Assembly (NCBI RefSeq): GCF_018350175.1
Contig: NC_058368.1
Location: 96,722,001-96,786,000 of the forward strand
Source of the DNA: Felis catus
Lineage: Eukaryota
Direction of reading: 5' to 3'
DNA: 64,000 bases
The translations under genes were made by a program, and so were the position numbers. Positions 33,809 to 58,811 of the stretch are shown here, in pieces. The notes beneath the pieces are model-generated. The model was not told the origin of the DNA. It saw nothing but the letters and a program-made list of their open reading frames with translations, and searched no databases. The stretch's first letter is position 1. Each line of letters starts with the position of its first letter.

Positions 33809-34218
33809 GGGGCACCTGGGTGGCTCAGTCAGTTAAGCGTGCAACTCTTGGTTTCGGCTCAGGTCATGATCTCATGGTTCATGAGTTCGAGCCCTGCGTG
33901 GGGCTCTGTGCTGGCAGTGTGGGGCCTGCTTGGGATCCTCTCTCTCCTTCTTTTATTGCCCCTCCCCTTCTCACACTCTCTATCTAAATAAATAAACAGG
34001 GGTGCCTGGGTGGCTCAGTTGATTCAGAGTCTGACTTCAGCTCAGGTCATGATCTCAAAGTTCATGAGTTCTAGGCCTACATTGGGCTTTGCACTGACAG
34101 CACAGAGCCTGCTTGTTATTCTCTCTCTCTCCCTCTCTCTCTGCCCTTCCCCTGTTCATGCTCTCTGTCTCTCTCTCCAAAATAAACATTGAAAAAAAAA
34201 AAAAGAAAGAAAGAAAGA
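33809..34218 (+). mobile_element. Head-to-tail CAN-SINE dimer (monomers 33809-33998 and 33999-34218)
   Basis: Two complete SINE bodies joined by CTAAATAAATAAACA|GGGG, with a single long A tail. Confidence 0.93.
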
Positions 34219-34631
34219 ATCAGAGTCAAATAAGACTGGGATGCATCCCGCATACAGGCCCAAGCATTTGGCAATATGAGACAGACAGACTGGGAGTCTG
34301 GACACCCTCGACCCCTTTACCTGTGACTCCAGCTAGCATCAAGAGACAGACACTAGGAATCATGGGACACTTGCTCAAGCCCTTCACCAAGATCATTTGC
34401 CTCCATCTTTTTTCGGAAAATAGTTCCTTTTTCTTGGTATTTTACAAGTTCATTAGATCAACCTTTGTTTGTAATGAGAGAGACTTTGAGTGGAAACAAC
34501 TGTACCATTCCTAGGATGTAACACCCTAGGAAATCAAAGGCTCTATCGCCCATACATTTCTTAATCAGGACATGGGTTTCCAGGAGGAGTGACAGTAAGA
34601 AGGACAAGTGGTGCCAATTTTGTTGTTGTGT

Positions 34632-34648
34632 TTTTTAAGTTTCTTTAT

Positions 34649-34696
<48 letters not shown>

Positions 34697-34869
34697 CATA
34701 CAAATGCAAGCAGGGGAAGGGAGAAAAAGAAGAAAGAGAGAATCCCAAGCAGGCCCCATGCTGTCAGTGCAGAGCCTGACACAGGGCTTGATCCCACAAA
34801 TTGTGAGGCCATGACCTGAGCCACAATCAAGAGTTGGACACTTACCTGACTGAGCCCCTCAGGTGCCCC
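34632..34869 (-). mobile_element. CAN-SINE with expanded (GA)n
   Basis: Antisense SINE; (GA)n at about 34652-34690. Confidence 0.93.
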
Positions 34870-36799
34870 ACAGTCAAGGTAAAATTTAAAAACCCAACCT
34901 GTGAAGCTGCCTATGATTTGCTTATTGTGGCTTTTGGCACCTTTATGGTGTAAATATAACGTTGAGACAGAGAATGTTCTCCATGATACTTCTGAGATAA
35001 ATAAAACGAATTCTGTTCTGAACCCTTCAGAACGAACATCTCCTCTCCCATGTTCAGAACAAAAATGAAATACCACTCAGACTTTCAGGTTTTCGACCTA
35101 ATTACTCAAAATCAAAACAAGCAGCTCATCTGTGATTAAGCAGAGTTCAACAGAGCAGGATTTGACACGGATGCTTGAGCAGCAGGTCTGAGGACACTGA
35201 AGCCCTCACTCTAAGCTACAGAAATGCAGCATATTCATTTATTTCAGTGTGTCCATTGAGACAGAGGAATCAACCCATAGCTGTTGCCCTAAGTCCCAGC
35301 ATTTCACCGTCAAGTTTGATGGCAAGGTACACAGTTAGATGGGGTTTCCTACAAGGACTACCCACCACAAAGTGCAACTGACAGGAAACATACAGAAAAA
35401 GCATTGCCACGTGAAAAGGGAGAGCACAAGTCTGATGGAGGCATGTGAAACCTTGCCCATAGTTCATGATTCATGACTTTAATAGCTGCACAATTAAATC
35501 TTGAACCTAAGTGACCCCATGCTGGTTGATGCATTTGGATTTTCTCCCTTGCTCACTACGCACCCCAACCATTAGGAAGTGTTTTGAAGACCTTTGGGGG
35601 TTCAATACCTTGCAATTGATGATTGCTGATTCTGGCTCCAAGTTCTCTGGTGATCAATAGTGATCTTCTACCCTCCCAGTCATCTATGATGATTCCACTA
35701 TCCACTTTAATTAAGAGGTAGAGAAGAATTACTATTAGAAAGGTATGTGCTAACACACCATTATTCTCTTTAGCTTCCAACATCTCGGCAGTATTAGAAT
35801 CTGTTGTAGTTTACAATTTCCCAAGACCATAAGCAAAGAAACTTGAAAAATAATCACATCTTGGGCCTTTGGAACCACGAAATATGATCAGAGTCCAAAG
35901 ATACTCAGAAATCTAAGGGACTCCTACCCACATGCAGCCAAGTATTTCATCTGGTGCCAGCTTTACATATCTATATTAGAAAGACTGAGGCCCTCGGGAA
36001 GTCAGACACAACTGGGGGTACATTCACTGATAAAATGATCTCAGAAGTATTCGTTACCCCAAGATCAAGTTTTCTCCATTGTCAAAGTGAGCTGTCTTTA
36101 CATTTATGGAATATGGGTCTTCTGGTGCTAGAGTGAGTAAAATCTTTCCATGGAGTAAGCACTCAGTAAACATTAGGCAATATATATATATGACCTTCTA
36201 TTTGGTTCATTTGAGAAAAGAGGAAATTCAGACCCACTGAAGTTAAGGGAGAAACTGTTAATGATGGAACCAGAGCAAAATCCCCGGCTCTTGCCCAGGG
36301 TATATTCCCCTCTAGTAGTACATAGGATAGGCTAGTGTATAGACCTACCGCTTCTCTTGGTGTGTGCCAGCACACGGGTGTGTTTAACTGAGACAACCCA
36401 TGGATGGTACTACTTCTACTCAACCAAAACAGTTAAGCTTATCCCCACAGGCACTTCCTCTCTTCTCTGAATCCCCTGGATTCCTTTCTCCTCAGAAGTC
36501 AGGTTGAGATACTTTGCTCCCAGTGACACTCGATCCTGTCCTGAAACATCTATGCTTTTCTCTTACTCAACATCTCCACAGTGGGAAACCCTCCTGTCAA
36601 CAGTGTCATTACTCAGTACAGCCATATTGACAAAATTTCTTGGAGCAAAAGGCAGATACAGGAATGATTAAGGGAAGTATCTCCTGATACTCATTAAGAG
36701 TGTCAGGTGTCAGTGATATGTAAGTCAGCAATACACACAAGGTTTTCACTCTCCTGAGCTTAGATTAGAGAGGGTGAAGGAAAATAAAAGCACAATTAT

Positions 36800-36878
36800 T
36801 TTGGGTGATCTTGAGCAAGTCACTTTGCTTTCTGTAATCCTTGGTTTCTTCATTCTTAGAATTCAGGGATTATTATTT
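36800..36878 (+). mobile_element. MIR core fragment
   Basis: GTGATCTTGAGCAAGTCACTTTGCTTTCTGTAATCCTTGGTTTCTTCAT. Confidence 0.7.
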
Positions 36879-37007
36879 TTTTTATAAAATCCATCATTAG
36901 CTGGGAAAATAGAATATTGATACACAGTATCAAAATGTTCACTACAGGTGTATCAAAGAACTAAACGTACAAAAAAAATTTTTAACCTTTAAAAATAAAT
37001 CCAGGCT

Positions 37008-37236
37008 GGGGCACCTGCATGGCTCAGTCAGTTAAGCGTCTGACTTCGGTTCAGGTCATGATCTTGCAGTTTGAGCCCCGTGCCAGGCTCTGTGCTGACA
37101 GATCAGAGCCTAGAGCCTGCTTCGGGTTCTGTGTCTCCCTCTGTCTCTGCAACTCCCCTGCTCACACTCTCTTGCTCTCTCTCTCAAAAATAAATTACAC
37201 ATTAAAAAAATTAAAAAAGTAAAAAATGAAAAAAAA
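37008..37236 (+). mobile_element. CAN-SINE
   Basis: SINE body; decayed TSD AAATC(C/T)AGG. Confidence 0.92.
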
Positions 37237-37244
37237 AATCTAGG

Positions 37245-37960
37245 AGACTATTGTATAATCTTGGGCTTAGGGAGATCCTGAGTAGCTACTTGTAAGCCAG
37301 AAAAGAAAATGTAGACATAGTGACTCAAATATATATACATACACACACACACAGCCACAGACATAGCCAAAGTCAAAAATTAAAGATGGGAAGAAAACAT
37401 TTGCAAAAGATGGAATATCCAAAATGTGCAACAACAACAACAAAAAGAAACATAAACTACCCATTATAAAAATGGCCAAAGGCTATGAAAATGTGTTTCA
37501 CATACCAGAAAATGTAAAAGATTAACAGTCTTAGGAGTAGACAAATATGCAAATTAGACAAAAAAAGTACCAAACTCTGGTGTAATCATCTGACAAGATC
37601 TGTCAAGACTCAGAGTATTCAGCACTGATAAAAGTTTAGGAAAATATTTTCTCTCAGACACTGTTGATAAGGTTATAAATTATGACACATTCTTAGAAAA
37701 AGCCATCTGAAAATATTTATTAAATTTTAAAGTCACATATCCTTTGACCCTAAAATCCCGCTCTGGGAATGCAACCATCTGGATTAGGAACACCAGTCCT
37801 TCAAGATAGAGATAGAGATAGAGATAGAGATAGAGATAGAGATAGAGAGATAGATATATATAGATTTGATTACATTCTAGTTGAAAAACCAAATTACCTA
37901 ACATACATTGTTTGCTTGTAAAAAAATAAAATACATTTATACTTGTAATTAATACAAATG
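37245..37960 (+). mobile_element. Ancient L1ME ORF2-end fragments
   Basis: GATGGGAAGAAAACATTTGCAA, AAAATGGCCAAAGGCTATGAA, CATATCCTTTGACCC. Confidence 0.6.
37804..37848. repeat. (AGATAG)n hexanucleotide microsatellite
   Basis: About seven tandem copies. Confidence 0.93.
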
Positions 37961-38399
37961 GATCATTTTCATTACACATTAGCAAAGGTGAAACCAAAGT
38001 ATGTTCTAGAACCTGCTCCACTGGGCTTTTTGAGGGAGTTCCAGAAAGGTGGCCATCTAACCCTCCCCCACAACCAATAATAATCACAGTCAAGAGCTGA
38101 TGACAATACAGGAGCGTGGTAGCTACCTATTTTTGTGCTAAACACCCAATTTCGCCATTGTATTATGTAATTACTGATTGATTACTGGAATCTAAAGCTA
38201 ATAAAGAAGTGCTAAGACTCTCTTCCCCACAGGACTACGGTAATGACTCTGAATTATGCATTATTTTAGAAAATGGATAAAAATATCTTATCTGCAATTT
38301 AGATCTTCTACAGTCCTCAAATTTCTATTCTGTGACAAACTAACACCCATCTTTGCAATGAGCATGCCATACAATAAGGAATAATCACAAATGCGTTAC

Positions 38400-38460
38400 C
38401 TCTTCAGAATCTTCCTCCTGCACTTGCTTTGCAGGTGGAAATACTGAATCTATCATTCTC
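38400..38460 (-). other. Candidate 61-nt spliced exon of an unidentified minus-strand gene
   Basis: Acceptor ttacctttttcaaaatgttattttgagcag| and donor GAG|gtaacg in unique sequence; purine-rich; one fully open frame RMIDSVFPPAKQVQEEDSEE. Confidence 0.5.
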
Positions 38461-39659
38461 CTGCTCAAAATAACATTTTGAAAAAGGTAAACACATTCCA
38501 TTAACTATGATTAACTATATGCTTCCATCATAATAAACAAGATGATCCCAAATATTCTACACTTCAGTCCTTTGTCTTGGCATCAGATGGACACAGCTGA
38601 AACCACTGCTAGGCATAATGGCTTTTCCAGTGAGAAAATTAGTGAAACAAATAGAAATGAAAATAATATTTGGAGGTAGGGGGAAAAGAAAGCTAGAATT
38701 GGAATCTATTCATCCCTTTGCTACTTACTAGTTTTGCATTTAAGCTATTCTCTTCTGTGGATCAGATTCCTTGCCTAGAAAATAATTGGGGACACTCTCA
38801 TTAACAGTTTGATTTGGATTTTGACTCTATTATCACTAATCCCTCACTTATATTTTTCTTTCTAAATATCAGTCAATACTACATCAGGAAAGCTGTTAGA
38901 ATATCATCTTAAAATGTGCTTAGTACTAGCCAAAAAGAATTTAAAAAATCAGGTTGATCATCCCTTGGTCTAGAAACTCTGTCTATTCTTCTAGTTAGTA
39001 CATTTGACTAACACTTTTCATAAAGAATTTGGTTTCTTGTGACTTGTCAAATGACACACAGAACAAAAACTTATTGACAGAATCACTAGGTGGGCAGCAG
39101 AAAAAAAAATCAATACATTTTAAATGCCAACCCTTTTAAAATGATCACTGTACTGGCTCATCTCAGGAAAATTATTTACTCAGGATACACAGATTTCCAA
39201 CTAGGCAGAAAATTCTTCCAGATTAAACTTTCCTTCTGCAAACCAAGCAATTGTTTTGGTTTTTATTTTTTCTTACGTATTATCTCACATGCAAAGGATG
39301 TTTCAAGTAAGAAAAAATGCAACCCACCCCCCCCCAAAAGGAGTCAGTGGATAAAAGAGAGCCACACTGACTTTGAATCATGTTTACAAAGCAAATAGAG
39401 TAGTGCATGGGCTTGAAGGAGAGTTTATACCCAATTAGGTGGGAGGAGAGAGGAAAAGCAGGGAGTTAGAAATATCTTCACTGAGAAAATTGTGCTTGAG
39501 ATTGGTCTTGGAAAATGAATGAAAAAGCATAAAGCAAAAAACAGAAAGCTATTTCAAGGAATTGCAACTCCAAGGGAAGGAGTCAGAGAAAAGATGAGAA
39601 AGAGGAAGGTACAGACATTATGCTAGATTTGTTCAATAGAGACACTGGTTCAGTGTCCA

Positions 39660-39790
39660 CAGCAATCTAAGCATTGGTACCATAATTTCACAGATGTAGA
39701 CATGGAAGTTCAGAGAGGTTAATTAACTTGCCCCAAATTACACACCTAATCAAGAGCACCTTCAAACCCTAGTCTAAAGGACTTCAAAGC
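39660..39790 (-). mobile_element. MIR
   Basis: TTTCACAGATGTAGACATGGAAGTTCAGAGAGGTTAATTAACTTGCCCCAAATTACACA. Confidence 0.75.
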
Positions 39791-40844
39791 CTTAACATAT
39801 TCAAAAAGCATTTTTGAGCATTTCCTGGGGTATAAAAGACAGTGCTTAAAACTGGTGATGCAAAGAGATATAGGATATAGTCACAGTCTGCAAGGAGCCT
39901 TTTGGACTCTTGGGCTGGGCTGGATTAAAGTGAGCTTCCAAGTTCATCAGTCATAATCTTGTCAGCCTCTTGCTTCCTGCTTTCTTTGATGCTCCAAGAG
40001 GTGCTTCTCTGAGTTCATCCTCATTGGGACCAGTTAAACTGTTGGTCCTTTCTGTCCACCTAAGGACTATTTTGGTCCAAGCAAGAGTCAGCTCAGTATT
40101 GCATGGGGAAAATAAGCCAAAAGGAGCTTCTCTCTTGATGGGGCCGCCCCTGTCCTTACAAAAAGCTCAGAATCAACTCTGTTAATGCCTTGGGTTTCCT
40201 TCATAGACACTGGGCAACTTGGATATTATATGCTCTGAAGCTCAAAGACACCAGTCTGTTCCCCTTCCCTTTTTCAGAAAGGATCAAGAGAACCCAGGAA
40301 TAGCATGACTCTCCTTCTGTACATGCCTGGTGAAGCTTTTGGAGGCAAGAGTTAAGTCACAGTTTCCCTTTAGCTTTCTTTTCTTTGACATTCTCTTTGC
40401 CCCCAACAATGCATTTCTTCCCCATCCCTTATGCTCATCATTCTCCATGAGCTAACATGAGGCCAATTGCCCTAATTCTCAGGAACTCTAAACCAGAAAA
40501 GCCATTTTGTTTTCCAGTTTTTCAAAGGCTATCCATCTCCTCCAGGGTGAGGGAGCTTTCTCAATGTCTTGAGCCATTTCCCTGGGTCTAACAGAACCAG
40601 GCTCCAGGCTCATCTATAGGCTTTGAGCACTGACCAGAAGGGGGTCCAGATCCCAGGAGCCAGTGATTCAATGTGCAGTCACTTCCACATTTAGACGACC
40701 ATCTGCAGGGGTAATTTCTGCAGAACACTCCTCTACAGAGCAATTATCAAATAGAATACCTAATTGTCACATATTATTATTGGCTGCATTTTGGAGAAAG
40801 AAATGTCTCAGCCACAGACTTTAGGACAAGATAGCATAAACCAG

Positions 40845-41067
40845 TTTTTAATTTTTTATTATTGATTTTTGAAAGAGAGAAAGAGAGAGAGAGCAAGAGA
40901 GCACGAGAGCGCGAGCTGGGGAGGGGCAAAGAGAGAGGGAACAGAAGATCCAAAGCAGGCTCTGCACTGACAGCAGCGAGGCCGATGTGGGGCTCAAATT
41001 GACAAATCACAAGATCATGACCTAAGCCAAAGTCAGACACTCAACCGACTGGGCCACTCAGGTGCCC
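40845..41067 (-). mobile_element. CAN-SINE
   Basis: Antisense SINE; TSD AAGATAGCATAAAC. Confidence 0.95.
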
Positions 41068-41286
41068 AAGATAGCATAAACTATTAAAAGATGCATACAT
41101 ACACACTTTTAACCTGTCATTTTGGCAAATATTTTACTTTTCATGCTTTTATGTTTTATTGTTTAGAGAAATGGGGGAGGCATTTAATACCATTTTTAGG
41201 GCATAGGTATGAATATGAAGAGGAATGGGACGGGGAAGAAAGTGACCTTCAGCCCCCGATAAGAATTCATTTAAAATTTTTCTTTT

Positions 41287-41475
41287 GGGGACACTTGGGT
41301 GGCTCAGTTGGTTAAGCATCTGACTTGGGCTCAGGTCATGATCTCACGGTTATGGGTTCTGTGCTGACAGCTCAGAACCTGGAACCTGCTTCAGATTCTG
41401 TGTCTCCCTCTCTCTCTGCCCCTCCCCCACTCACGCTCTGTCTCCCTGTCTCAGAAATAAACATTAAAAAATTTT
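41287..41475 (+). mobile_element. CAN-SINE
   Basis: SINE with a small internal deletion; decayed T-rich TSD. Confidence 0.92.
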
Positions 41476-41918
41476 TTTAAATTTTCCTTTTGACCCTCAG
41501 CATGAGTCACTTTAAAACATTCCACATGTACTGTTTCTTCCTTATTAATTCATTAACATACATTGGAAGATCTTGGTACATTTTGATTGCTACTGTGGCA
41601 CTAGTAACAGATATAAAATCTAAGTCACAATCCCCTTAGCACCTGCCCAAAAAGGTCTCAACAATTACTAGCTTTAACAGTTGCAAAGCTTTGTTTATTT
41701 GGCTTCTAATTTTGAATATATCCTCAGTAGCTAATTAAGAACTATGAGACCCTGGCTAAGTTTGATTGCCCCCACCAAGAAATCTATTCTTCTATCAAAA
41801 TAAAATGGGGCCCAACAGCTCAAAGATATAAGGTTCGCTTTATCTCAAACAAACACAGCTAGAATATTATGAACAAGGAAGAAGTAACATTTTCTGGAAA
41901 AGCTTAACATTTTCTTAC

Positions 41919-42182
41919 CGGCGAGCATACTTGCTTTGGAAAACCCTTCAAGTGAACAATGGTTTGCATTATACTCAGGCTTTAGTTTTTCTCTAAATCT
42001 TCCTTTGTACGGCATTTCCTAAGCTCTCTCCACTCTGCCTGACAGTTTTGTTATTTTAGCCTGATTTTCTGCAATTTTACTTTTCTGCTGTCTGGATAAT
42101 TTTATTATTTGCCATCTTCTCTCTTTCAGACTGGGGTTTTTTTATTCTGGTTTTGGCTTGCTGGGGTTTTGGCAGTCTTCTG
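41919..42182 (-). other. Candidate largely non-coding (5' UTR-like) exon
   Basis: Donor CCG|gtaaga; acceptor cctcttgtattttacag|CAG (NAGNAG), or a first exon from the adjacent promoter-like patch; stops in all three frames. Confidence 0.45.
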
Positions 42183-42239
42183 CTGTAAAATACAAGAGGT
42201 TTGGAAGCTGTGCAGATGGCAAATGCAGTGTTGTGTGCT

Positions 42240-42360
42240 TTCATTCATGATGGGCTTCCGGCTTTTTAGAACCGGCAGGAAAACCGCCAACTCTTATTTC
42301 CTGTGCCCACTTCTGACACGTTTCAGCAAGACTGCAGTAGTGACTTGACGGACTGAGGTT
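42240..42360. promoter_or_regulatory. Candidate ETS/RUNX-type promoter or enhancer
   Basis: CTTCCGG (42255), CAGGAAA (42276), AACCGC (42282), ATTTCCTG (42296) and TGACG; five CpGs within about 100 bp of unique DNA in a CpG-poor window. Confidence 0.45.
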
Positions 42361-42410
42361 TTACAGTGTGGGTAGTCCCTGGTGGATGGAACTTAAAAGA
42401 AAAATCATCA

Positions 42411-42608
42411 GGGGTGCCTGGGTGGCTCAGTCAGTTAAGTGACTTTTGGTTTCAGCTCAGGTCATGATCTCACGGTTGGTGGGTTCTAACCCCATTTGGG
42501 GATCTGCACCCAGAGTGTGGAACCTGCTTGGGATTCTCTCTCCCTATGTCTTTGCCCCTCCCCCGCTTGCTCTCTCTCTTGAAATAAATAAACAAACTTA
42601 AAGAAAAA
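42411..42608 (+). mobile_element. CAN-SINE
   Basis: GGGGTGCCTGGGTGGCTCAG head, AATAAA tail. Confidence 0.93.
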
Positions 42609-43169
42609 CCAAGTCTAGAAAAAAAATCTTCTGTTCATATTTAGCATTGATCTTCTTACATCATCTATCTTGGTACGTTTTTAATCAATCTGCTTACCTT
42701 TGAAGTTAACATCCCCTTCCTCCTATGGAAGAGTTCAGTGATTACCCAATCTTTCCTTACAGTTTACGTTGTTTGTTTCTTTTTCCCCTGAGCCAGTGCA
42801 CAAGAGAACAAGAAATTTTATTTTTCCCCCCAAAGAACACCTTGCCAAGTACTATCATTTAAATAGTAAGACCCACAATCTCAGGTGAAGTTTAATGATC
42901 TTTTTTCCAGAAATGGCACCTCGAAAAACACAGCATTTATTCCAGTAGTTATATTTGAGTGCTAAGCTCAGACAAACTATTCCTCTTTGGAAAAGGAAGA
43001 ACCATTTTGCCACACCATGGATCAAATATTTAGGACCCCCTGGTAAACCAAAGAGGATAGTGCAGTGCTATAGAAACAGGGAAATATTGGTTAGCACTAC
43101 TAAGGAAAGCACGTAGTTCCACAATATAGCTATTGGAATGTAAGAATTAGTAATAATAAAGTTCTTCCA

Positions 43170-43385
43170 GGGGCACCTGGGTGGCTCAGTCCGTTGAGCA
43201 TCCAACTTCGGCTCAGGTCATGATCTCACAATTCCTGAGTTCAAGCCTCACATTGGGCTTGCTGCTGTCACCACAGAGCCCACTTTGGATCCTCTGTCCT
43301 CTGTCTCTCTGCCCCTACCCCGCCTGTGCTCTTGCTCTCAAAAATAAACATTAAACAATTTTAAAAAAATAAATAAATAAAAAAA
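43170..43385 (+). mobile_element. CAN-SINE
   Basis: TSD AATAA(A/G)GTTCTTCCA. Confidence 0.95.
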
Positions 43386-44656
43386 TAAGGTTCTTCCAAT
43401 GCCCTCAGTTTCCCTTGACTCTGCTTTTCTTTTTTTTTTTTTTTGTCCCAGAGAGATGCATTAGGGAAAACACAATTAATTTCTGCACAATCTAAAAGCT
43501 CAGCACAAGAATATATAAGCATTCAGCCCAAGAAAAATAAACGTTCACAAATACAACTTCATATTCTCTGATATGCTATATAGTGCTTATTGATTTATGG
43601 GTGCTACTAAAAAAAAAAGGCACACCATTTTGCTCCTGGTCACAGATAAATAATTTGATTCCTAAGCAACTGGTCTGCTTCCCATTCTGCCCTCCATCTT
43701 TAACAAACTGGACTCAGTGGGAATTCTAAAAGCATAACTAATGAAGCCCCAACCATGGAACATGAAGCAAGGATTCCAGATTTCCCAGGAGGCTTTCAAT
43801 GCTTTACACAAAACCCAGACAAGACATGTCTCCATCATGGAAGACTCTTTTTTATAACAAGACATGTTCTTCTCTGGTCCTGCCTCTAAAATGGCAACAG
43901 CACTCTTTCCCCCACTCTCAGTTCATATGTCAGAAGGAAAACACCCCATACCCACCTCCAGAAGACTATGGATGCCAAGGCATCACGCTCATTGGAGAAC
44001 CACTGTTACACATGGTACCACGAAGGCTTCTCTAACGTAGGACCCCAAAGCGACTAAGATATTCTGTTACACATTAAATAAGGGAGTCAAGCCACAGGAA
44101 CCGCATATGCCTCAGATAGTTTCTTTTCCTTTTGAATGGATTCACATTTTGCATTATTAAATATTCAATTACTTAACTTGATCAAAAGAAAGTGGAGGGT
44201 CATGCACACGCAAATACAAGGTCAAGAAAATAAAACTATTTTTTTTTTCTCAGACCCTGATGCATTTCAATGAGTAGATAATTCGTATCTATTTGTATTG
44301 GATCGCCTATGCAGCCAAATTGAAACTATAATAAGGAGATTGTAATATGAGGCTAAACGGACCCTAAGACCACCTTATATGTAAATTAAGGTACAATGAG
44401 AGGGCCAATTTTATTATGGGGTAAATAGGCTATTCAGGATATTCATATGGAAATATTATCAGCCTCATTTAAAGTTATCTGATAACGAAGACAATATATT
44501 TTTTATAAAGTAGTAAGGATTGATTGTTTGAATGATATCTGTTTTTCAGTAGAAACTTAGCTACTGTGACATTGTCTCCATATTAATGTGCATATTTCAA
44601 GTTAGAAAGTTTAGTTTAGTTGTCATAGCACTAAGGAAAACTGGCTACAGGATCAT

Positions 44657-45465: not shown

Positions 45466-45649
45466 ACACATCAGCATAACACACACACGCACCCTAAGTA
45501 GTGTAAAAAAGACAAACTGCAAATGAGAAAATCATTTATCAGTAACCTATCACAGTAAAAATACCCTAGAAAATTTGAAAAGCTTGTTAGAAGAAAAAGA
45601 CCAAAGGGAATTTGTCTTAAAAACGGGGGGGGGGGGGGGGGGGCGGGGA

Positions 45650-45855
45650 GGAGCGCCTGAGTGGCTCAGTTGGTTGGGTGCCCGACTTCAGCTCAGGTCA
45701 TGATCTCACAGTCCGTGAGTTCGAGCCCCGTGTTGGGCCCTGTGCTGACAGCTCAGAGCCTGGAGCTTGCTTCAGATTCTGTGTCTCCCTCTCTCTGACC
45801 CTTCCCTGTTCATGCTCTGTCTCTCTTTGTCTCAAAAATAAACATTTTAAAAAAA
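45650..45855 (+). mobile_element. CAN-SINE with G-run flanks
   Basis: SINE body flanked by G runs ending GGGGAG on both sides. Confidence 0.93.
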
Positions 45856-46624
45856 GGGGGGGGGGAGAATAAGAATCTATAAAGATGCTCATCTTTGTTC
45901 ATAATAACAAACACAAATTAACCTATTCTCAAATAAGACTACTCACCTAAGGGTCAAACATCTAAAATTATGACAACATTTTCCTTGGATGGTTGGCCTG
46001 CAGGCCGTCAGGCACTGTCACTCATTACAGGTGGGAATGCTAAATGATACAAGCCAAGAGAATTTAATGTCTAGTCTAACTACATACACGATGGTCTTTA
46101 TCTCAATAATGCTCACCATTAGGACTTTCCCCAAATACAGTCAGAGTGGGCTAAACTGTCATACACAAAGATTATTCATTGTAACAATTGTTGCAATAAG
46201 AAAATCATGGGGGAAATCAGGATCCATCACCAGGCGATTCCCTGAGCAAACTTTAGTGGCATATCCTACAGCTATAAACGTGAGTAAGAAAGATGTGCTC
46301 TACTGTTATGCATCGAGCACCCGGACACATTGTTAGGCGACACACCATCTGTAGACCAGTTTTTATAGTATTACAGCACTGTTTGTATAAGAAAAAGGCT
46401 GGGAATGTGTGTGCATGTATGTGCATATAAGACACACACGTGCATATTGATTCACACACATTTATACGTGTACACATCTATGTGCATACAAATATATCAT
46501 TTTTTAAAACAACAAGATAAACCCAAAAGGACCCCAAATTGCTACATATTAAGATGAGGTAGGGATACAGATCAAACATGGACTTCTGTTTGGAGTTTTT
46601 ACTTTGGACATGATGAGTGATTTT

Positions 46625-47277
46625 TGTTTTGTTTTTGGAAAGAAATTTATTTTTTTTTTAATTTACATCCAAATTAGTTAGCATATAATGCAACAATGGT
46701 TTCAGGGGTAGATTCCTTAATGCCCTTTACCCATTTAGCCCACCCCCTCCCACAACCGCTCCAGTAACCCTCTGTTTGTTCTCCATATTTATGAGTCTGT
46801 TTTGTCCTCCTCCCTGTTTTTATATTATTTTTGCTTCCCTTCCCCTGTGTTCATCTGTTTTGTCTCTTAAAGTCCTCATATGAGTGAAGTCATATGATTT
46901 TTGTCTTTCTCTGACTAATTTCACTTAGCATAATACCCTCTAGCTCCATCCACGTAGTTGCAAATGGCAAGATTTCATTCTTTTTGATTGCTGAGTAATA
47001 CTCCATTGTATATATATACCACATCTTTTTTATCCATTCATCCATCGATGGACATGTGGGCTTTTTCCATACTTTGGCTATTGTTGATAGTGCTTCTATA
47101 AACATTGGGGTGCATGTGTCCCTTCAAAAGAGCACACCTGTATCCCTTAGCTAAATACCTAGTAGTGCAATTGCTGGGTGGTACGGTTGTTCTGTTTTTC
47201 ATTTTTTGAGGAACCTCCATACTGTTTTCCAGAGTGGCTGCACCAGTTTGCATTCCCACCAGCAGTGCAAAAGAGAA
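46625..47277 (-). mobile_element. 5'-truncated feliform L1
   Basis: Minus-strand ORF2 end [48 protein letters not shown](G/T)TG(A/T)TTTT. Confidence 0.94.
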
Positions 47278-48109: not shown

Positions 48110-48373
48110 TTGGTCAACTCTAAGAATGTTAAAATATGAACTCATTAAGCAAACAAATTAACACACATACCAATTTGGGGCATTCTCCACCATTTCTTAC
48201 TTTCCATAAATCCTTCAACTGCTTTGGGCTTAAATGCATAACCAAATCTTTTTTCTGTGTTTGCATAAACCATATTTCGTGGTAGTAATATTACATGAAG
48301 GAACATTATGATTTATAGAAGAATGTCAGCTATAAATACAGAAGGAATGATCCCATTAAAAAATCATAACTCT

Positions 48374-48585
48374 GGGTCGCCTGAGTGGCTGAGTCAGTTG
48401 AGCGTCTGACTCCAGCTCAGGTCATCATCTCATGATTCTTGAGTTCGAGCTTCGCGACGGGCTCTGTGCTGACAGCGCGGAGCCTGGAGCCTGCTTCCAA
48501 TTCTGTCTGCCTCTCACTCTGCCCCTTCCCTGGCTCATGCTCTGTCTCTATCTCTCAAAAATAAATAAACATTAAATTTTTTTTT
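48374..48585 (+). mobile_element. CAN-SINE
   Basis: TSD AAATC(A/C)TAACTCT. Confidence 0.95.
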
Positions 48586-49039
48586 TAAATCCTAACTCTA
48601 TAATCTCTACAGAAAGCAAAGATCTTGGCAAGGAATTATAAAGAGATGATCCCTAGGTGAAAGTCAAATTCTGTAATAGACACAGTGAGGCTGGGACACT
48701 AACTCACTGACGTACCTTAACATCACTAGAAGTGGGGCACTAGAAAATTCACAGCACCCCCAAGAGCAACTACTGAAGTTTTTGTTTTTTTGTTTTGTTT
48801 TGCTGGTGTGTTGTGGCGAGCAGAGAGAGAGACTCTGAATCAAATTAACCATTTAGATGGACACTTTGCAGGAATTATGGGGAATGGATGAGAAAGTTAA
48901 GTAAATGAAACCACAAAGAAACAATCTGACAAATTCAAAATGTAATCAACTCCTCCAACACCTACTTTCGTTTTCAACAAATAAATGGTAATGGGGGTAG
49001 AAACAGGGAAGAAACTGCTATCAAGAAATTTACAAACAT

Positions 49040-50668
49040 AAATATTGTTAAAATGTCAATACTACCCAAAGCTTTCTACACATTCAATGCAATCCCAATC
49101 AAAATTGCACCAGCATTCTTCTCAAAGCTAGAACAAGCAATCCTAAAATTTGTATGGAACCGCAAAAGACCCCGAATAGCCAAAGTAATATTGAAGAAGA
49201 CGACCAAAATGGGAGGCATCACGATCCCAGACTTTAGCCTCTACTACAAAACTGTAATCATCAAGATAGCATGGTATTGGCATGAAAACAGACACGTAGA
49301 CCAATGGAATAGAATAGAAACCCCAGAATTGGACCCACAAATGTATGGGCAACTAATCTTTGACAAAGCAAGAAAGAGTATCCAATGGAAGACAGTCTCT
49401 TTAACAAATGGTGCTGGGAGAGCTGGACAGCAACATGCAGAAGAATGAAAGTAGACCACTTTCTTACACCATTCACAAAAATAAACTCAAAATGGATAAA
49501 GGACCTGAATGTGAGACAGGAAACCATCAAAACCCTAGAAGAGAAAGCAGGAAAAAAACCTCTCCGACCTCAGCCGCAGCAATTTCTTACTTGACACATC
49601 TCCAAAGCTAAGGGAACTAAAAGCAAAAATGAACTATGGGACCTCATGAAGATAAAAATCTCCTGCAGTGCAAAGGAAACAATTAACAAAACTAAAAGAC
49701 AACCGACAGAATGGGAAAAGATACTTGCAAATGACATATCGGACAAAGGGCTAGTATCCTAAATCTATAAAGAGCTCACCAAACTCCACACCCAAAAAAC
49801 AAATAATCCAGTGATGGAATGGGTGGAAAACATGAATAGACACTTCTCTAAGGAAGACATCCAGATGGCCAACAGGCACATGAAAAGATGCTCCACGTCA
49901 CTCTTCATCAGGGAAACACAAATCAAAACCACACAGATATCACCTCACACCAGTCAGAGTGGCTAAAATGAACAAATCAGGAGACTGTAGATGCTGGAGA
50001 AGATGTGGAGAAACAGGAACCTTCTTGCATTGTTGGTGGGAATGCAAACGGGTGCAGCCGCTCTGGAAAAGTGTGGAGGTTCCTCAAAAAATTAAAAATA
50101 GACCTACCCTAAGACCCAGCAATAGCACTGCTAGGAATTTACCCAAGGGATACAGGAGTACTGATGCATAGAGGCACTTGTACCCCAATGTTTAGAGCAG
50201 CACTTTCAACAATAGCCAAATTACGGAAAAAGCCTAAATGTCCACAAACTGATGAATGGATAAATAAATTGTGGTTTATATACACAATGGAATACTATGT
50301 GGCAATGAGAAAGAATGACATATGGCCTTTTGTAGCAATGTTGATAGAACTGGACAGTGTTAAGCTAAGTGAAATAAGTCATAGAGAGAAAGATACCATA
50401 TGTTTTCACTCTAATGTGGATCCTGAGAAACTTCACAGAAGACCATGGGGGAGGGGAAGGAAAAAAAAAAAAAGGTTAGAGAGGGAGGGAGCCAAACCAT
50501 AAGAGACTCTTAAAAACTGAGAACAAACAGGGTTGATGGGGGTGAAAGGGAGGGGAAAGTGGGGGATGGGCATTGAGGAGGACACCTGTTGGGATGAGCA
50601 CTGGGTGCTGTATGCAAACCAATTTAACAATAAACTTCATATTAAAGAAAGAAAAAAAGGAAAGAAAA
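49040..50668 (+). mobile_element. 5'-truncated felid L1 (1.6 kb), relatively young
   Basis: ORF2 C-terminal remnants ([18 protein letters not shown]...), 3' UTR and A tail; perfect 17-bp TSD AAGAAATTTACAAACAT at 49023-49039 and 50669-50685. Confidence 0.96.
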
Positions 50669-51053
50669 AAGAAATTTACAAACATTAATCAAGAACATTT
50701 AAACTGTTTCAATTTTGATGGGAACCAACTGTAAAAAGATGGGCTTTATTTTAGGTAATGGGGCAAATTGAACACAGACTGGATCATACACTATTGTTCA
50801 TATCAGAAGTTGTGATAATGGCAGTGCACACAGGGAAAAAGTCGTGAGGCATTTAAAATATAATCTGAAGAATTTATGGTATCAGGGATTCGTTTAAATA
50901 ATTTTGGAAAAAATAAGAGGATAAAACAGATTCCAAAATGTTGGTAACTCTCGAAGCTGGAGGTTATGTACATGGCAGTTCATGATGCTGTTTATTTTCG
51001 AATTTTCATTGGAAATTACGTTAAAAATATTTTACAATATAATGACTCCAGGC

Positions 51054-51231
51054 TTTTTAAAGAAAAAAAATTATTCATTTTTGAGAGATGGAAAGAGAGA
51101 GCACAAACAGGGGAAGGACTGAGAGACAGAATCCAAGCAGGCTCCCCACCGTCAGGGTCTTGAACTCACAAACCATGAGATCACGACCTGAGCTGAAATA
51201 GAGTCACATGGTTAACCAACTAGGCACCCCT
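51054..51231 (-). mobile_element. CAN-SINE (internally deleted)
   Basis: Antisense SINE; TSD TGACTCCAG. Confidence 0.88.
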
Positions 51232-51711
51232 AGTGACTCCAGAAATTTCTATCGTATGTAACTACTAGTTACGCACAGTAACTACATGTTCGTATGCAAG
51301 CACTACAGGACCTTTCCAGCATGATTCCTATTACGTACCTTTCCACTGTTGTTTTCAAAAAGGGCTATTTATGCTTTGATCAGACCTGGTGTGTGTACAG
51401 GCAGTTTTCAATATGTTCTGCTTCCTATGCTTTCCCAATCTATTAAGTAATATCACATAGGAATTTTCTATCGTTTCTTTGCAATGAAAAAATGAAACAA
51501 GATGCTGTCTAGAAAGGACCCTCTGCTTTTATTTGATATTTACCTCACAGACTCCCCACATGCAGATCCTGAACCTCCCGCAGACCACACAGAAAACCAT
51601 GAAACTGTGAAATAAACAGTGTGTGGAGGCTGAGTGAGGTCTTACACATACAAGATGCATTATATATAAAGTTGATAGAGATGCTTTATGATTGAGAAAT
51701 TAAAAACCTCA

Positions 51712-51940
51712 GGGGCGCCTGGGTGGCTAGTAGGTTAAGCGTCCGACTTCAGCCAGGTCACGATCTCGCGGTCCGTGAGTTCGAGCCCCGCGTCAGGCTC
51801 TGGGCTGATGGCTCAGAGCCTGGAGCCTGTTTCCGATTCTGTGTCTCCCTGTCTCTCTGCCCCTCCCCCGTTCATGCTCTGTCTCTCTCTGTCCCAAAAA
51901 AAAATAAATAAACGTTGGGAAAAAAAAAATTTTTAAAAAA
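51712..51940 (+). mobile_element. Young felid SINEC_Fc-type CAN-SINE
   Basis: Retains many CpGs (GGTCACGATCTCGCGGTCCGTGAGTTCGAGCCCCGCG); felid-type CAGCCAGG, GGGCTGATGG and GTTTCCGATT variants; TSD ending ACCTCA. Confidence 0.95.
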
Positions 51941-52742
51941 ACACCTCAAATAACAAATAATTAAATTAGGACTCCTCATAGGTAAAACTATGCTTTTTTT
52001 TCTTTACCATTAACAATGTCCTAATCCTTGACAGTACTGAGTAACTCTGACTCCTTAGTTCTCTGACTACAAGGAATTTAATTTTCAGGCATTTTATGAT
52101 TAGTAGTGATTTTTGTGTCTTTGGAAAGAGGAAATCTGCAAGACCTTTACTAAAATGATTCCTGAACGATTGATCAGGAGTGGTCCACCATCTTCCCTAA
52201 AACTAACTCCTCCCTACAAGACAAGATGTCAATAGGCTGAGAAGTCCCTCACCAGCCTATGTAAGTAGGATATCATGTGAATGGAACCTCTCGGAGGCGT
52301 GTGATATAGTGCCTGAAAACCAGGAACTTTTTGTCTTCAAGATTACAAAACGCAAAACCACTATCCTTTTTGTATCGAAATTACCTCAAGTTCAAGCACA
52401 AAGTAGCATGGTGTACCAACAGTACAAGACAGAGACAACACCATTGGCTAAGAGCATCTACAAGTGCACCATCTTACGGCATAAACTAAATCCCTACTGA
52501 ATTTTACATTAAATCTGATCTCCAGAGTGAGTGATTACAGGACTTTCAAGGAACGGATGGATCGCTGAAGGAAACATGCTAGAGACAAATGGACCCCGCA
52601 TCCTGGTGACTGGCTGCCTATTTATGACTGTAAATTATTATTTAGACCAGATGAAACCCTGATTCATTTTTCTAGAAGCTCCTTAACTATTTTTGCAGAT
52701 GTCTTCAGTGAATCCTTCCTTCTATCCTTAAGAACAAGGTAC

Positions 52743-53030
52743 AGAAGACCATGGGGGAAGCGAAGGGGGAAAATAGTTACAGAGAGGGAGGGAGGCAAAC
52801 CATAATAGACTCTTAAATACAGAGAACAAACTGAGGGTTGATGGGGGGGGATGCACGGAGGAGAGGGAAAAATGGGTGACGGGCATTGAGGAGGGCACTT
52901 GCTGGGAGGAGCACTGGGTGTTGTATGTAAGCAATGAATCACAGGACTCTACCCCCAAAACCAAGAGCACACTGTATACACTGTATGTCTGCCAACTTGA
53001 TAATAAGTTGTATTTAAAAAAAAAGAAAAA
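52743..53030 (+). mobile_element. Felid L1 3' UTR-only insertion
   Basis: Perfect TSD AAGAACAAGGTAC (52730-52742 and 53031-53043), TT/AAGA site, A tail. Confidence 0.95.
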
Positions 53031-53560
53031 AAGAACAAGGTACTTCTCAATGATTTTTTTTCCTTCGATATCCTCTTCCAGATGTTTTCCCTTTCTTAAG
53101 GTAAGTGTTTCCAGGTAGAATTTTAAGCACACGAAGGCACACTTTCAGAAGAAAATGCTAGATTGTTCTTGTTCATTTTTATGAAACGCTAAATCAAACC
53201 TCACGCACGGGTTATGCGTGTCTACAGCAGGGCAGGTAGAATACGGTGAGGAACTCTCTAACTATAGAGCCTCTGCTCTCTTCAGGCCAAGATGGTATTG
53301 GAGGAAGCCTAGATCCTAAAGCCTTAAATGTCAACTGAATCATTGCAATCAGCGTAAAACACACAAAAATAGTATTTAAGGTAAGAATAAGATGAAGGGA
53401 TAAATCTATCCTTGTTTTAAAGAAACCTGAAATTAGAACACTAAGAGTATAATGGAGACACATATTAATTCTGTCCCTGATCCTTTGTTTGTATTTGTTA
53501 TATTAATTTTTAAAAACGATTCTTTGCCTGGGTCTCTATTTAGGCCTGTTTTTTTGTTTT

Positions 53561-53562
<2 letters not shown>

Positions 53563-53607
<45 letters not shown>
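53563..53607. repeat. (TG)n microsatellite
   Basis: Perfect GT run. Confidence 0.97.
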
Positions 53608-53611
<4 letters not shown>

Positions 53612-54481
53612 AAGGCAGTAAAAAGTAAAGAAACCCATTACTTGAAAATAATTCTATATATGAAGGTCCTGAACTCACCAACTCCTTAATTCTATCAAGA
53701 ATTAGTTACCCTACCCTTAAGTCATCTACCCAAGAAATTTTTAATATGGAATATTTATAGCTAAATTAGTGTAAGATCAGAAATCGAAGGGCAGTTTTTA
53801 TAGAGAAAGAGCTGATGACAGACTCACTACCAAGCTCACTGCTTTCCCTCATCATGAGCAGACCTCTGAGTCACTTTTATAAATCTGATACCTATAAATT
53901 CAGAGGTAAGATGAATACAGTGATAAGAAGAGTACCATGAACCCAAGATTAAAGCAACTACCTAAGAGACTAGTTAAAATACATTAGTTCCCTTGTAGCA
54001 GTCATCGATGACATCTTCAAGAACAAATAGACCAATATGGAATGACACCAAGCAAGGAAATGCCCGCTGGTAGAGGGGATACTTAGGATAGGTTTTATGA
54101 TGGCTTGTTTTGGTCTGAGAAGCACAGACTCTCTGCTCAAGCCCATTTGTGTCATAACTGACTAAGCCAATAACTCAGCTGCCAGAGAAGTTTGCTTTGG
54201 TTTCTTCATCTGTAAAGTACGAAAATAAAAAGGCAGCTCCTTGACCACAAAATGAACAGAAATTGCTTTCTGAAAATACTCTTGCTGAAGGCAAAGTACT
54301 ATGGGTGCTCTCAAACAATTAGGGAATAAAAACTACTTGTGATTTTAGAAATAAAAGTGACCTGTTGGATCAATTATTACCTTTGTCATGGATGTATTTG
54401 GAATTTTTCAATTTCAACAATTCAACTCATTTCATTTATTCTCCTGTCATAATTAAAGGATGAACCTCCCCACCCTTTCTC

Positions 54482-54670
54482 TTATTTATTTTTGAGAGAT
54501 AGCATGAGTCAGGGAGGGGCAGAGAGAGAGGGAGACACAGAATCTGAAGCAGGCTCCAGGCTCTGAGCGGTCAGCACAGAGCCCAATGCAGGGCTTGAAC
54601 TCATGAACTGAGAGATGATGACCTGAGCCAAAGACGGACACTTAACCGATTGAGCCACCCAGGCACTCCC
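54482..54670 (-). mobile_element. CAN-SINE
   Basis: Antisense SINE ending GAGCCACCCAGGCACTCC. Confidence 0.93.
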
Positions 54671-56370
54671 CCCCCCCCACACACACACAGTTTGATATAC
54701 CACAGTGTAAGTATACAACTGAGGGAACTAGACACAAAATAGGTATCAGGTACATACCTATCGATGGGTTAGTTGATACACAGAAACTTGTATTCATAGT
54801 CGAAACGATGCCCTTCAGAAGATTCTCTCAGCCCTGCTCTCCATGACACGTTCCCTGTATCCTTCACTCATCTCAGCAAGGAAGACAAATAGGTGAGCAA
54901 AACTAACAAATCTGAGTCCTGTTCCATGGTCTATGAGCCAACACTGAAAATCTTACAATAAGAGTGGTGGGGTTTGAGCCCCTTCAAACCGGTGTTGATG
55001 AGGCCACATATCCATTAGGAATAGTATGGAGAAAGGCACCTGTCATGCTCCAATTATAGTCATCCAAATTCATGTCTTTCACAGTTCTGCTAAGACCAGA
55101 CTCTCCTCCTTTACCATGTATTACTGACGAACACCCTTCACCCTCAATAATATATGAAAGAAAAGACCAAGAACGTTAAGCATGGAGGAATATTCAAAAA
55201 GTAAACATAAGAAATGCAATCATGATGCAAACACAGATGGCCACAGGGTTTAAGCAGGTGATATAGATAAAACAATAAAACCCAGTTGTAGGAAGAGCAG
55301 GAGAGGGAGGGGAACTAAAAAAGATAAATGACCTTGACTGCAAGATGAGAAACTCACACTAGGGGGTGGTGTGAATGTGAACTGTCCTCAAACCTAAGTC
55401 CTGTCCACGGGGACAGTCATGGCTTGCAAGTCTCCAGCAGAGTGTGGCCGTGAGAACACTCTTTCAACAGAGCACAGAAACCTGGATTTTGTTTGACATC
55501 TCTGCTATTTTATATCTTCTAACCAATTCAAACAAAGCCTAGGTCATCATGGAAGCCAAACGAAAATGTATCTCTTTTGTGGATTAAAGCTTATTAAGCT
55601 TTGCTTTGGGTCTTTTGACATGGTTTGCATTTTAGATACTGGCTTCTGAGAAACAAGAGGCATACATTACAGCTGCTCAACTGGATGTTAATTATTTAAT
55701 TAGGAAAATAATTTTCACTTTAGAAAAAAACCTGGATTTCAAAGAGTTCCTGCAAGAGGTTATTAGTGAAATTTTAAAAGTATTTCCAACACACCCCAGG
55801 TGATCCAAGCTGCCATTAACCTCGTAGCAATGTCGCCTTCTACTGGAGTCCTTCATACAGGAGTTGATGTCTATTGTTTCCTATTTCCTTCACATTTGTG
55901 ACTGTGTTTTCTTTATTTAATAAATGTGTCCTGAGGTAAAAATGGCTACCTGTGAACTCAGGAGTGTGGGAGGTCGTATCAAATCAGTACTTAGTCCCCC
56001 CAAAGGTTAACACAAATGTGACCCCCTTAAGAACAAGTCTGGTATCTGTAGTGATAGAAGAAGGTCTACTTTTCTTACTCATATAGATGAATATCATATT
56101 TTCTCTCCAAGACTTCTTCTTTACCACTGAAATGTTTCTGCATACTTAGAATTTGAAGATCAAGTTCAAGTCACTGAAAAAAGGACTACACGGCACCCAG
56201 AAAAATGATAAATTCTAAGCCAACAGTTGTAAAATATCCTCCAAATTTACATCATTACTGATCATACACAATATGACTAAGGAGAAGAAGAGAAATCCTG
56301 TACCGTCAGGGAAAATTTAGGTGTCGTTTTAGCTTAGGAAAAGTCACAATCTAAAATAAAAAGATGAGGT

Positions 56371-56572
56371 GGAGTGCTTGGGTGGCTCAGTCAATTAAGT
56401 GTCCCATGCTTGGTTTTGGCTTAGGTTCTTGAGTTTGAACCCCACGTTGGGCTCTGTGCTGACAATATGGAGCCTGCTTGGGATTTATTCCCTCTCTCTC
56501 TCCCTCCCTGTGTTTGTCCCCCTCCCTCTCTCTCAAAGTAAGTAAATAAACTAAATTAATTAATTAATTAAA
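56371..56572 (+). mobile_element. CAN-SINE (older, internal deletion)
   Basis: GGAGTGCTTGGGTGGCTCAG head; (TAAT)n tail. Confidence 0.88.
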
Positions 56573-56589
56573 TCATAGACCAATTTATG

Positions 56590-56770
56590 TAATAACTATC
56601 ATGTGAGCACCTATCATGCAGTGGGTACTGTGCCACATAGCTTTTAATTGTCAAATGAAACCACCTCAATTATGCACATGAGCAAAACTGAGGCTGAGGT
56701 ACAAATAATCTCTAGAGGTTACCCAAGTAACAAATGGCAGGTATAGTCTAGACAAGATTCAAATCCAGGC
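56590..56770 (-). mobile_element. MIR
   Basis: GAGCACCTATCATGCAG..ATGAGCAAAACTGAGGCT..GATTCAAATCCAGGC. Confidence 0.7.
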
Positions 56771-56780
56771 ACAGGAAATT

Positions 56781-58137
56781 ATTACTTCTTTTTTTAATTT
56801 TATATCCAAGTTAGTTAGCATATAGTGCAGTAACGATTTCAGGAGAATACAGTGATTCATCCCAACAAATGTCTTCCTTAATACCCCTTGCCCAGTTAGC
56901 CCATTCCCCCACCCACAACCCCTCCAGTTACCCTCTGTTTGCTCTCCATATTTAAGAGTCTCTTATGTTTTGTCTCCCTTTCTGTTTTATATTATTTTTG
57001 CTTCTCTTCCCTTAAATTTGTATCTTAAGTTCCACATGAGTGAAGTCATATTTGTCTCTAATTTTGCTTAGCATAATACACTATAGTTCACCCACATTGC
57101 TGCAAATGGCAAGATTTCATTCTTTTTGATTGCTGAGTAATATTCCATTATTATATTATATATACGACATCTTCTTTATCCATTCATCTGTCAATGGACA
57201 TTTGGGCTCTTTCCATATATGGGCTATTGTCGATAGCACTTCTATAAACATAGGGTTGCATGTGCCCCTTTGAAACAGCATACCTGTATCTTTTGGATAA
57301 ATACCTAGTAGTGCAATTTCTGGGTCAGAGGATAGTTCTATTTTTAATTTTTTGAGGAACTTCCATACTGTTTTCCAGAGTGGCTGCACCAGTTTGCATT
57401 TCCACCAACAGTGCAAAAGTGTTCCTCTTTCTCCACATCCTCTCCAGCATCTGTTGTTGCCTGAGTTGTTAACGTGAGCCATTCTGACAGGTGTCAGGTG
57501 GTATCTCATTGTGGTTTTGATTTGTATTTCCCTGATGATTGATATTGAGCATGTTCTCATGTGTCGGTTGGCCATCTGGATGTCTTCCTTGGACAAGTAT
57601 CAATTCACGTCTCTTGCCCAATTCTTCACTGGATTATTCGTTTTTTGGGTGTTGAGTTTGCTAAGTTCCTTTTAGATTTTGGACACTAACCCTTTATCTG
57701 TTACGTCATCTGCAAATATCTTCTCCCATTCCATTGGTGGCCTTTTAGTTTTGCTGATTGTTTCCTTCGCAGTGCAGAAGCTATCCTGATGAGAACCCAA
57801 TGGTTCATTTTTGCTTTTGTTTCCCTTGCCTCTGGAGACAAGTTGCTGCAGCCGAGGTCAAAGAGGCTTTTGCCTGCTTTCTTGTCAAGAATTTTGATGG
57901 CTTCCTGTCTTATTAGGTCTTTCATCAATTTTGAGTTTATTTTTGTGTATGGTGTAAAAAAGTGGTCCAGGTTCATTCTTCTGTATGTTGCTGTCCAGTT
58001 TTCCCAACACCATTTGGTGATGAGACTGTCTTTATTCCATTGGAATAAATTCTTTCCTGCTTTGTCAAAGATTAGTTGGCCATACGTTTTGAGAGTCTAT
58101 TTCTGGGTTCTCTATTCTGTTACATTGATCTAAGTGT
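56781..58137 (-). mobile_element. 5'-truncated feliform L1 (1.36 kb)
   Basis: Minus ORF 57156-57596 is the ORF2 C-terminus ([14 protein letters not shown]); perfect TSD CAGGCACAGGAAATT at 56766-56780 and 58138-58152. Confidence 0.96.
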
Positions 58138-58422
58138 CAGGCACAGGAAATTCTAAGGAGATGGAAGAACTTTAGGAGTTATCTGATCCAAAGCTTCTGT
58201 CTTACATTTGAAAAAAAAAGGTCACCACAACAGACCATTGACTAGCTCAAGTGCTCACAAATAGACCACCTTTCTTTCAAGATAGTGCCAAAGCAAGGGT
58301 CACTTCTGCCAACTTTAGTAACTATTATTTAGCATTTCATTCCCTAAGATGATGTAACCCTCATAGCCGTGCCCTTATCTTTGGGAAGAGTGCGATGTAT
58401 CAGTCTGTCATTTAAAAGTCCT

Positions 58423-58811
58423 GGGGGTACGTGGGTGGCTCAGTTGGTTAAGCGTCCAACTCTTGGTTTTGGCTCAGGTCATAATCTTGTGGTTTGGTAG
58501 GTTTGAGCCCAGCATTGGGCTCCGTGCTGGCAGTGGGGAGCCTGCTTGGATTCTCTCTCTCCTCCTTTTTCTGCCCCTCTCCTAGCACTCTCTAAATAGT
58601 AAACAGGGCACCTGGGTGGCTCAGTTGGTTAAGCGTCTGATTTCAGCTTAGGTCATGATCTCATGATTCGTGAGTTCTAGCCCTGCATTGGGTTTTGCAC
58701 TGATAGCGTGGAGCCTGCTTGGGTTCCTCTCTCTTCCTCTCTCTCACTCTGCCCCTCTCCCTCTCACCCTGTCTCTGTCTCCCTCAAAATAAATCAATAA
58801 TGTTAAAAAAA
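58423..58811 (+). mobile_element. Head-to-tail CAN-SINE dimer (monomers 58423-58605 and 58606-58811)
   Basis: Junction CTAAATAGTAAACA|GGGC; possible TSD TTAAAAGTCCTG / TTACAAGTCTG around the whole dimer. Confidence 0.92.

Follow-up and report, generated by a model that had tools for sequence, protein, structure and literature searches.

In feliforms, members of the CAN family of short interspersed elements (SINEs), also called CanSINE or SINEC, have a tRNA-like head, a pyrimidine tract and AAAT repeats, normally followed by a terminator or a TT rudiment and then by an A-tail, TTTT being a functional terminator of RNA polymerase III (Pol III) (PMC9599045). Canids carry 6.4-6.7 x 10^5 CAN copies (PMC9599045), and no figure for the cat was found in the literature. 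Tandem CanSINE arrays formed by targeted insertion in Felidae also consist of adjacent copies of the same family at one locus, and one supplementary legend gives each insertion its own target-site duplication (TSD) (PMC4084570). Two complete monomers joined head to tail are found in the complex SINEs Alu and Urop (PMC3531059, PMC13023118); 13% of SINE families are complex, and in SINEBase a combination of complete SINEs is a new family if it has at least 100 copies (PMC3531059). In the L1 template-switch chimeras U6/L1 and U6/Alu, the 3' end of a Pol III RNA is joined to a second element and one TSD surrounds both (PMC4476161). The word 'dimer' does not occur in the main text of PMC9599045, PMC4084570 or PMC13756887, and no report of a carnivore SINE dimer was found in the searchable literature, which left out most subscription papers and the SINEBase supplements. 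Here, two fused CAN-CAN pairs are described in a 64,000-nucleotide stretch of the Felis catus genome (NC_058368.1, positions 96,722,001 to 96,786,000; hereafter the window, numbered from its first base), and their common descent is, from the sequence, probably the best single reading.

Direct reading of the window places the two head-to-tail pairs at 33809 to about 34219 (dimer 1) and 58424 to about 58815 (dimer 2), both on the forward strand, as are all the features of the dimers given below; an initial annotation of two head-to-tail CAN dimers about 24 kb apart was therefore borne out in place and orientation. Each of the four arms has a tRNA-related head with boxes A and B, a pyrimidine tract and AAAT repeats, as in the feliform CAN family, and the T at box B position 3 is the state of cat and civet (PMC9599045). 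The left arm of dimer 1 (33809-33998) is a long-head monomer with box A at about 33821-33832 and an intact box B at 33883-33893, and ends in AAACA without TT rudiment or A-tail. Its right arm (33999-34204) is a short-head monomer whose box B carries a change at 34072 (TTCTAG); further parts are AATAAA (34181-34186), TT and an A run of 13 bases, beyond which the tail has been remodelled into an AAAG-type repeat (34205-34219) that blurs any TSD. In dimer 2, the long-head left arm (58424-58605), which is closest to the left arm of dimer 1, also ends in AAACA without terminator or A-tail and has a CpG-decayed box B, and the short-head right arm (58606-58815) has one tail and, at 58678, the box B change of the dimer 1 right arm. 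The left-arm type is presumably the one named SINEC_Fc3 in Repbase style.

These elements differ from CAN monomers by the fusion of two arms and the altered box B of the right one; moreover, the terminator or TT rudiment and the A-tail, present in both right arms, are missing from both left arms, which stop where CAN terminators or their rudiments usually begin (with PMC9599045 as reference). The right arm follows directly after the AAACA of the left arm, with no internal poly(A). Both junctions read as written in the initial annotation, and they are alike but not identical: after a common A, the right arm starts with GGGG in dimer 1 and GGG in dimer 2, and the final 45 bases of the left arms differ by three indels. 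At position 143, within the pyrimidine tract, a T run is present in each left arm, of four bases in dimer 1 (33951-33954), where it may act as a leaky Pol III terminator, and of five in the equivalent position of dimer 2 (58566-58570); the run is also found in the solo copy at 34869. Since 85-92% of the words of 32500-35500 were recovered in 14 DNA or unlabelled sequencing runs, the dimer 1 region is no assembly oddity.

Dimers 1 and 2 form one end-to-end alignment of 392 columns (79.3%) that spans both arms and the junction. Their flanks are unrelated, as had been noted initially: over 3 kb on each side, matches were found only in SINE copies, plus four short weak ones of 20-33 bases (E>=0.003). 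Segmental duplication was ruled out, the 3-kb flanks not being homologous. The tandem-pair pattern occurs at two places in the window and in none of 100 shuffles. A blastn search located 29 CAN loci in the window, of which 27 (23 solos and the four arms) were aligned, one locus cut by the window edge and one without head being left out. The left arms are mutual nearest neighbours, with an identity of 0.836 over core columns that ranks 5th among 351 pairs, 3rd of 351 with CpG-like columns masked and first of 15 among long-head copies. The right-arm pair has an identity of 0.811 (rank 14 of 351, and 12 of 190 among short-head copies). The summed arm identity was matched by only 261 of 200,000 random quartets of the 27 aligned copies, the observed pair having been chosen for its likeness.

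The paired diagnostic variants on which the initial annotation relied were retained in part. All four quoted motifs are present. The left arms of both dimers carry CTGGCAG and CTAAATA, which none of the 23 solos has. The right-arm combination of a short head, no CTCAGAGCCTG insert and a long-type 3' part was likewise absent from the 23 solos, by reading of the alignment. CATTGGG, proposed as restricted to right arms, was found in three solos and is a CpG-decay form; it was dropped as a diagnostic, as was the CAA of CAACTC, on account of CpG decay and presence in solos. The strongest single point for a common source is the change to TTCTAG in box B of both right arms, which substitutes the purine at position 5. 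The frequency of this state was read from the contigs of two whole-genome sets and the reads of two RNA sets, aligned to 33950-34114 at 80% likeness. The site is A or G in 30,759 of 32,513 X24 reads and 8,799 of 9,285 X21 reads, leaving at most 5.4% and 5.2% for other letters; the corresponding 18% in the DNA contigs is biased upward, because only about 3% of the depth at 34067 extends to the site. At position 34089, at most 9.1% of X24 reads are non-C.

The same alignment contains 17,391 X21 single-cell reads with a loose end at position 33999, the first base of the CAN head (consensus agreement 0.53), and the loose-end consensus resembles what we take to be a template-switch adapter; many CAN RNAs may start at +1, or the adapter may invade the G run. 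A solo copy on the minus strand (34640-34869), inverted and 450 bases downstream of dimer 1, carries two features of the left arm of dimer 1, the T run and a private G, a likeness that may be due to chance, to a monomer lineage or to short-range conversion.

A possible but doubtful alternative to a common source is that two independent events converged on the same junction, the matching variants being due to chance and to the selection made in the initial annotation. In one form, a second CAN entered an older CAN tail at the CT/AAAT where that tail begins; the A-rich spacer would be the TSD, and slippage between the two tails, almost identical in sequence, would later have removed its other copy. 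Felidae CanSINEs often target existing CanSINE loci, giving tandem arrays, and several insertions were present in 21 of 59 regions (PMC4084570); the spacer of 12-13 bases is close to the usual TSD peak of 14-16 bases (PMC2912911), and the common T before AAAT could reflect target preference instead of ancestry. In the other form, the L1 reverse transcriptase reached the 5' end of one CAN RNA and jumped to the 3' end of a second, and template-switch chimeras do have one outer TSD and no inner one; however, such switching may for the most part be confined to U6 and U6atac, with U6/Alu chimeras being very rare (PMC4476161). Unlike those chimeras, both partners here are CAN, and chimeras that form anew would not share private variants. 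Unlike the Felidae arrays, neither dimer shows a detectable inner TSD or a retained left tail, and the paired variants are common to two loci. Independent events would require matching arm types on both sides and four rare shared variants, and there is no second AATAAAC-TT block in the 3' end of either dimer. With the box B change, moreover, a right-arm parent is expected to give little transcript; the change would then need two separate origins after insertion, at a position where no more than 5.4% of reads show it.

Target-site duplications bear on the same question. The 5' ends of both dimers lie at TT/AAAA. The candidate outer TSD of dimer 1, in the A-rich 5' flank from an L1-endonuclease-type TT/AAAA site (33792-33808), is no better than control, its score of 9 being reached by 13 of 22 control tails. 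The candidate of dimer 2 (58414-58423, also from TT/AAAA, and 58816-58824, with one mismatch and one gap) has a score of 7, reached by 1 of 22 control tails. The TSD initially proposed around the whole of dimer 2 is therefore borderline, and, as an outer TSD is also expected after nested insertion, it does not discriminate between fusion and nesting. For comparison, a TSD score matched by no more than 1 of 21 controls was obtained for 15 of 22 solos, three solos not being included in the test and one tail being mis-anchored. A TSD flanking the right monomer alone, which the initial annotation had named as evidence against its own proposal, was not detected above control, the best inner scores being reached by 16 of 22 (dimer 1) and 13 of 22 (dimer 2) controls in a low-powered test with A-rich candidates. 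The missing inner TSD favours fusion weakly, since A-rich candidates score high in controls. Neither hallmark of a nested insertion, a TSD of the inner monomer or a remnant of the tail of the outer one, was detected in the two dimers.

Genome-wide abundance was estimated from the alignments to 33950-34114, with a single-copy depth, from eight listed pieces per run, of 47.9 and 34.2; summed depth is no copy number, so the copy-equivalents are rough. In the two contig sets, the head (34016-34021) amounted to 169,571 and 212,545 copy-equivalents, and the positions 14-19 bases left of the junction (33980-33985) to 361 and 397, solo tails included. Further to the left, the figures fell to 235 and 263 (33974-33979), 76 and 77 (33956-33961) and about 2 (33950-33955). 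The upstream share 14-19 bases left of the junction was 0.21% and 0.19% of heads in the contigs and 0.18% in the X24 reads, again with solo tails included. Under all four blastn scoring schemes, dimer 2 aligns to the bait across the junction at 80-84%, so that similar copies should register (the mapping aligner itself may differ). The count misses copies less than 80% alike or with other tail lengths, and only part of the CAN copies mapped; allowing for missed ones, the true ceiling would lie near 1,000 copies. With respect to the SINEBase definition, the combination is present at two loci with unrelated flanks, with a floor of 2 and, solo tails included, a ceiling of about 360-400 copy-equivalents in this register. 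That a large dimeric CAN family exists, on a par with other complex SINE families and with thousands of copies or more annotated so far as adjacent monomers, is very improbable: such a left arm precedes 2 of the 28 CAN heads in the window, which would suit it, but the depth left of the junction is only the small share of head depth given above. What these figures allow is at most a small CAN side-branch, and not an Alu-like family.

Contigs that differ from the bait at the junction provide some information on other loci. From the distance-to-piece-end values, contigs with C33997G (25, 25), C33997T (23, 23) and T33993A (25, 25) span about 33970-34020, and at least two other loci would have the pyrimidine tract and the A-rich spacer ahead of the head in both DNA runs. 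For contigs with A33982C the values reach no more than 21 and 18; the majority of long pieces on the left therefore end at the junction and are solo tails.

Database searches added little. The tandem-pair pattern gave 0 loci in metagenome contigs, where a control head pattern gave only 12 loci. The control pattern also matched 3 loci in prokaryote genomes and 2 loci in viral contigs; a longer pattern gave 0 loci in viral contigs. As the control matches were mostly caniform-type monomers or chance bacterial ones, the metagenome null carries no weight. A junction-spanning translation, a 49-residue antisense stretch of dimer 2, had 3 matches among 1.84 billion protein representatives, none at the junction and 2 of them solo-type CAN translations, and the same search among longer proteins gave 0 matches; with too few carnivore repeats in the protein sets, these nulls mean nothing. 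Rfam gave 0 matches. One caniform-type metagenome contig (L012, about 350-600) combines a short tRNA-like SINE, whose A/T tail is preserved, with a full CAN copy behind it, an ordinary tandem with retained spacer, unlike both dimers. Carnivore SINE heads were also seen in three prokaryote genome records (L013, 451-542; L014, a minus-strand match; L015), at contig ends or in a 251-base contig, which are likely host contamination or chimeric assembly.

Rarity combined with proximity suggests another explanation, in which one dimer was nested once and was then copied by ectopic gene conversion (break repair off the neighbour) onto a solo CAN 24.6 kb away, so that two related dimers, each with an older outer TSD, would exist with no mobile family. 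This would account for both common descent and proximity despite the genome-wide rarity, and it agrees with the same orientation of both dimers and with the left edge, 33950-33955, being reached by so few copy-equivalents in both DNA runs. We consider it improbable: conversion among Alus occurs within about 10 kb and declines with distance (PMC8230782), no distance-identity trend was found in the 253 solo pairs of the window (Spearman -0.01, with low power), no tract boundary is visible in the dimer alignment, and an event adding about 190 bases would be required.

Descent of both dimers from one fused CAN-CAN, low-copy composite source is the explanation favoured here, with middling confidence. 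The composite master element of the initial annotation thus stands as the leading explanation, on the quartet comparison and the fused-unit anatomy, whereas the 'family' that it implies would, given the low copy ceiling, be small if it exists. Several observations weigh against a common source. Starting with the arms, the right-arm pair drops to rank 59 of 351 once CpG-like columns are masked, and with the same masking the nearest neighbour of the dimer 2 right arm is the dimer 1 left arm. Each arm pair forms a clade in only 4% of bootstrap trees, with 20 of 24 inner branches open. Between the junctions there is a difference of one G, which is common among independent 5' ends, and at least 4 of 22 solos begin with GGG. 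The loss of right-arm likeness on masking, the open tree and the difference between GGG and GGGG all speak for independent events. Several supposed diagnostic variants are also present in the 23 solos (TTGGTTT in 2, TTCTA in 1, CATTGGG in 3 and G[CT]TTT[GT] in 2), in part the outcome that the initial annotation had said would count against it; two rare variants are shared in 8 of the 351 pairs and one in 55, so that such sharing does arise by chance.

The remaining contrary points concern the TSDs, transcription and copy number. Only the dimer at 58.4 kb has even a borderline outer TSD, and the T run in both left arms would be expected to hold back Pol III read-through. Not one of the 16 contig pieces listed extends across the junction, that of dimer 1 itself included; contigs end inside repeats, and some records are removed by a filter. 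The other spanning loci, visible only through differing junction letters, may be ordinary nested pairs, and no third dimer was seen in full. Few junction hits genome-wide had been named initially as a result that would count against the proposal, and with a ceiling of about 0.2% of heads this is partly the case; two copies within 25 kb would be unlikely unless there were about 300 or more copies, the pairs expected genome-wide within that distance under uniform spread being 0.1 at 100 copies, 0.9 at 300 and 10 at 1,000.

If a common fused source is nevertheless accepted, the right monomer would have been joined straight to the AATAAA region of the left monomer, with loss of the left terminator and A-tail. 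Transcription by Pol III would start at the left boxes A and B, read through the junction and end at the right-arm tail, and the box B of the right arm, damaged, would no longer be needed. The L1 ORF2p would reverse-transcribe the RNA of about 390 bases into TT/AAAA sites, giving one TSD around the whole unit, and the source would thus have been mobilised as one unit, perhaps to more than two places. The anatomy fits the needs of such a fused unit, with a left box B, no left terminator, a damaged right box B and one tail. Many transcripts would end early at the T4-T5 run of the left pyrimidine tract; if ancestral, this run implies a leaky read-through, which fits a lineage that stayed small. 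The source would have been briefly active, long ago, in a feliform ancestor, leaving few copies, from a handful to some hundreds.

In Alu, the left promoter drives the unit and the right promoter is weakened, as would also hold for the two dimers. In contrast to Alu and Urop, the dimers described here are tRNA-derived and have no A-rich linker beyond the AAAT repeats, and their detectable copies are at most some hundreds versus 280,000 for Urop and more than 1 million for Alu (PMC3531059, PMC13023118). A large family is unlikely. It is more tentatively suggested that the dimers represent a dimeric tRNA-SINE family of feliforms, so far uncatalogued and numbering between 100 and about 1,000 copies, a failed Alu-like experiment in which the left promoter would have been kept, the left terminator deleted and the right box B disabled, with the T run capping amplification.

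Other features were observed in the window. The solo CAN at 5021-5230 has an internal duplication of about 14 bases before the pyrimidine tract, and the solos at 45630-45880 and 54480-54690 have G-run flanks on both sides, with a G run within the apparent TSD. Head-to-head inverted CAN pairs are located at 40880-41480 and 51070-51920, about 220 and 470 bases apart. Long repeat fragments, mutually 66-90% alike and taken to be L1 3' parts, are found at 19200-20870, 25080-26410, 46640-47270, 49040-50650, 56790-58140 and 60420-61030.

Dimerisation made Alu the dominant primate SINE. If the two pairs in the cat are independent or locally converted, the finding is an ordinary one. If the common source is true, a small CAN-CAN lineage would offer an obvious case for comparing why dimers succeed or fail, in terms of read-through, loss of the right promoter and terminators, and some adjacent SINEC annotations in the cat would be single insertions, which would matter for SINE counts and markers.

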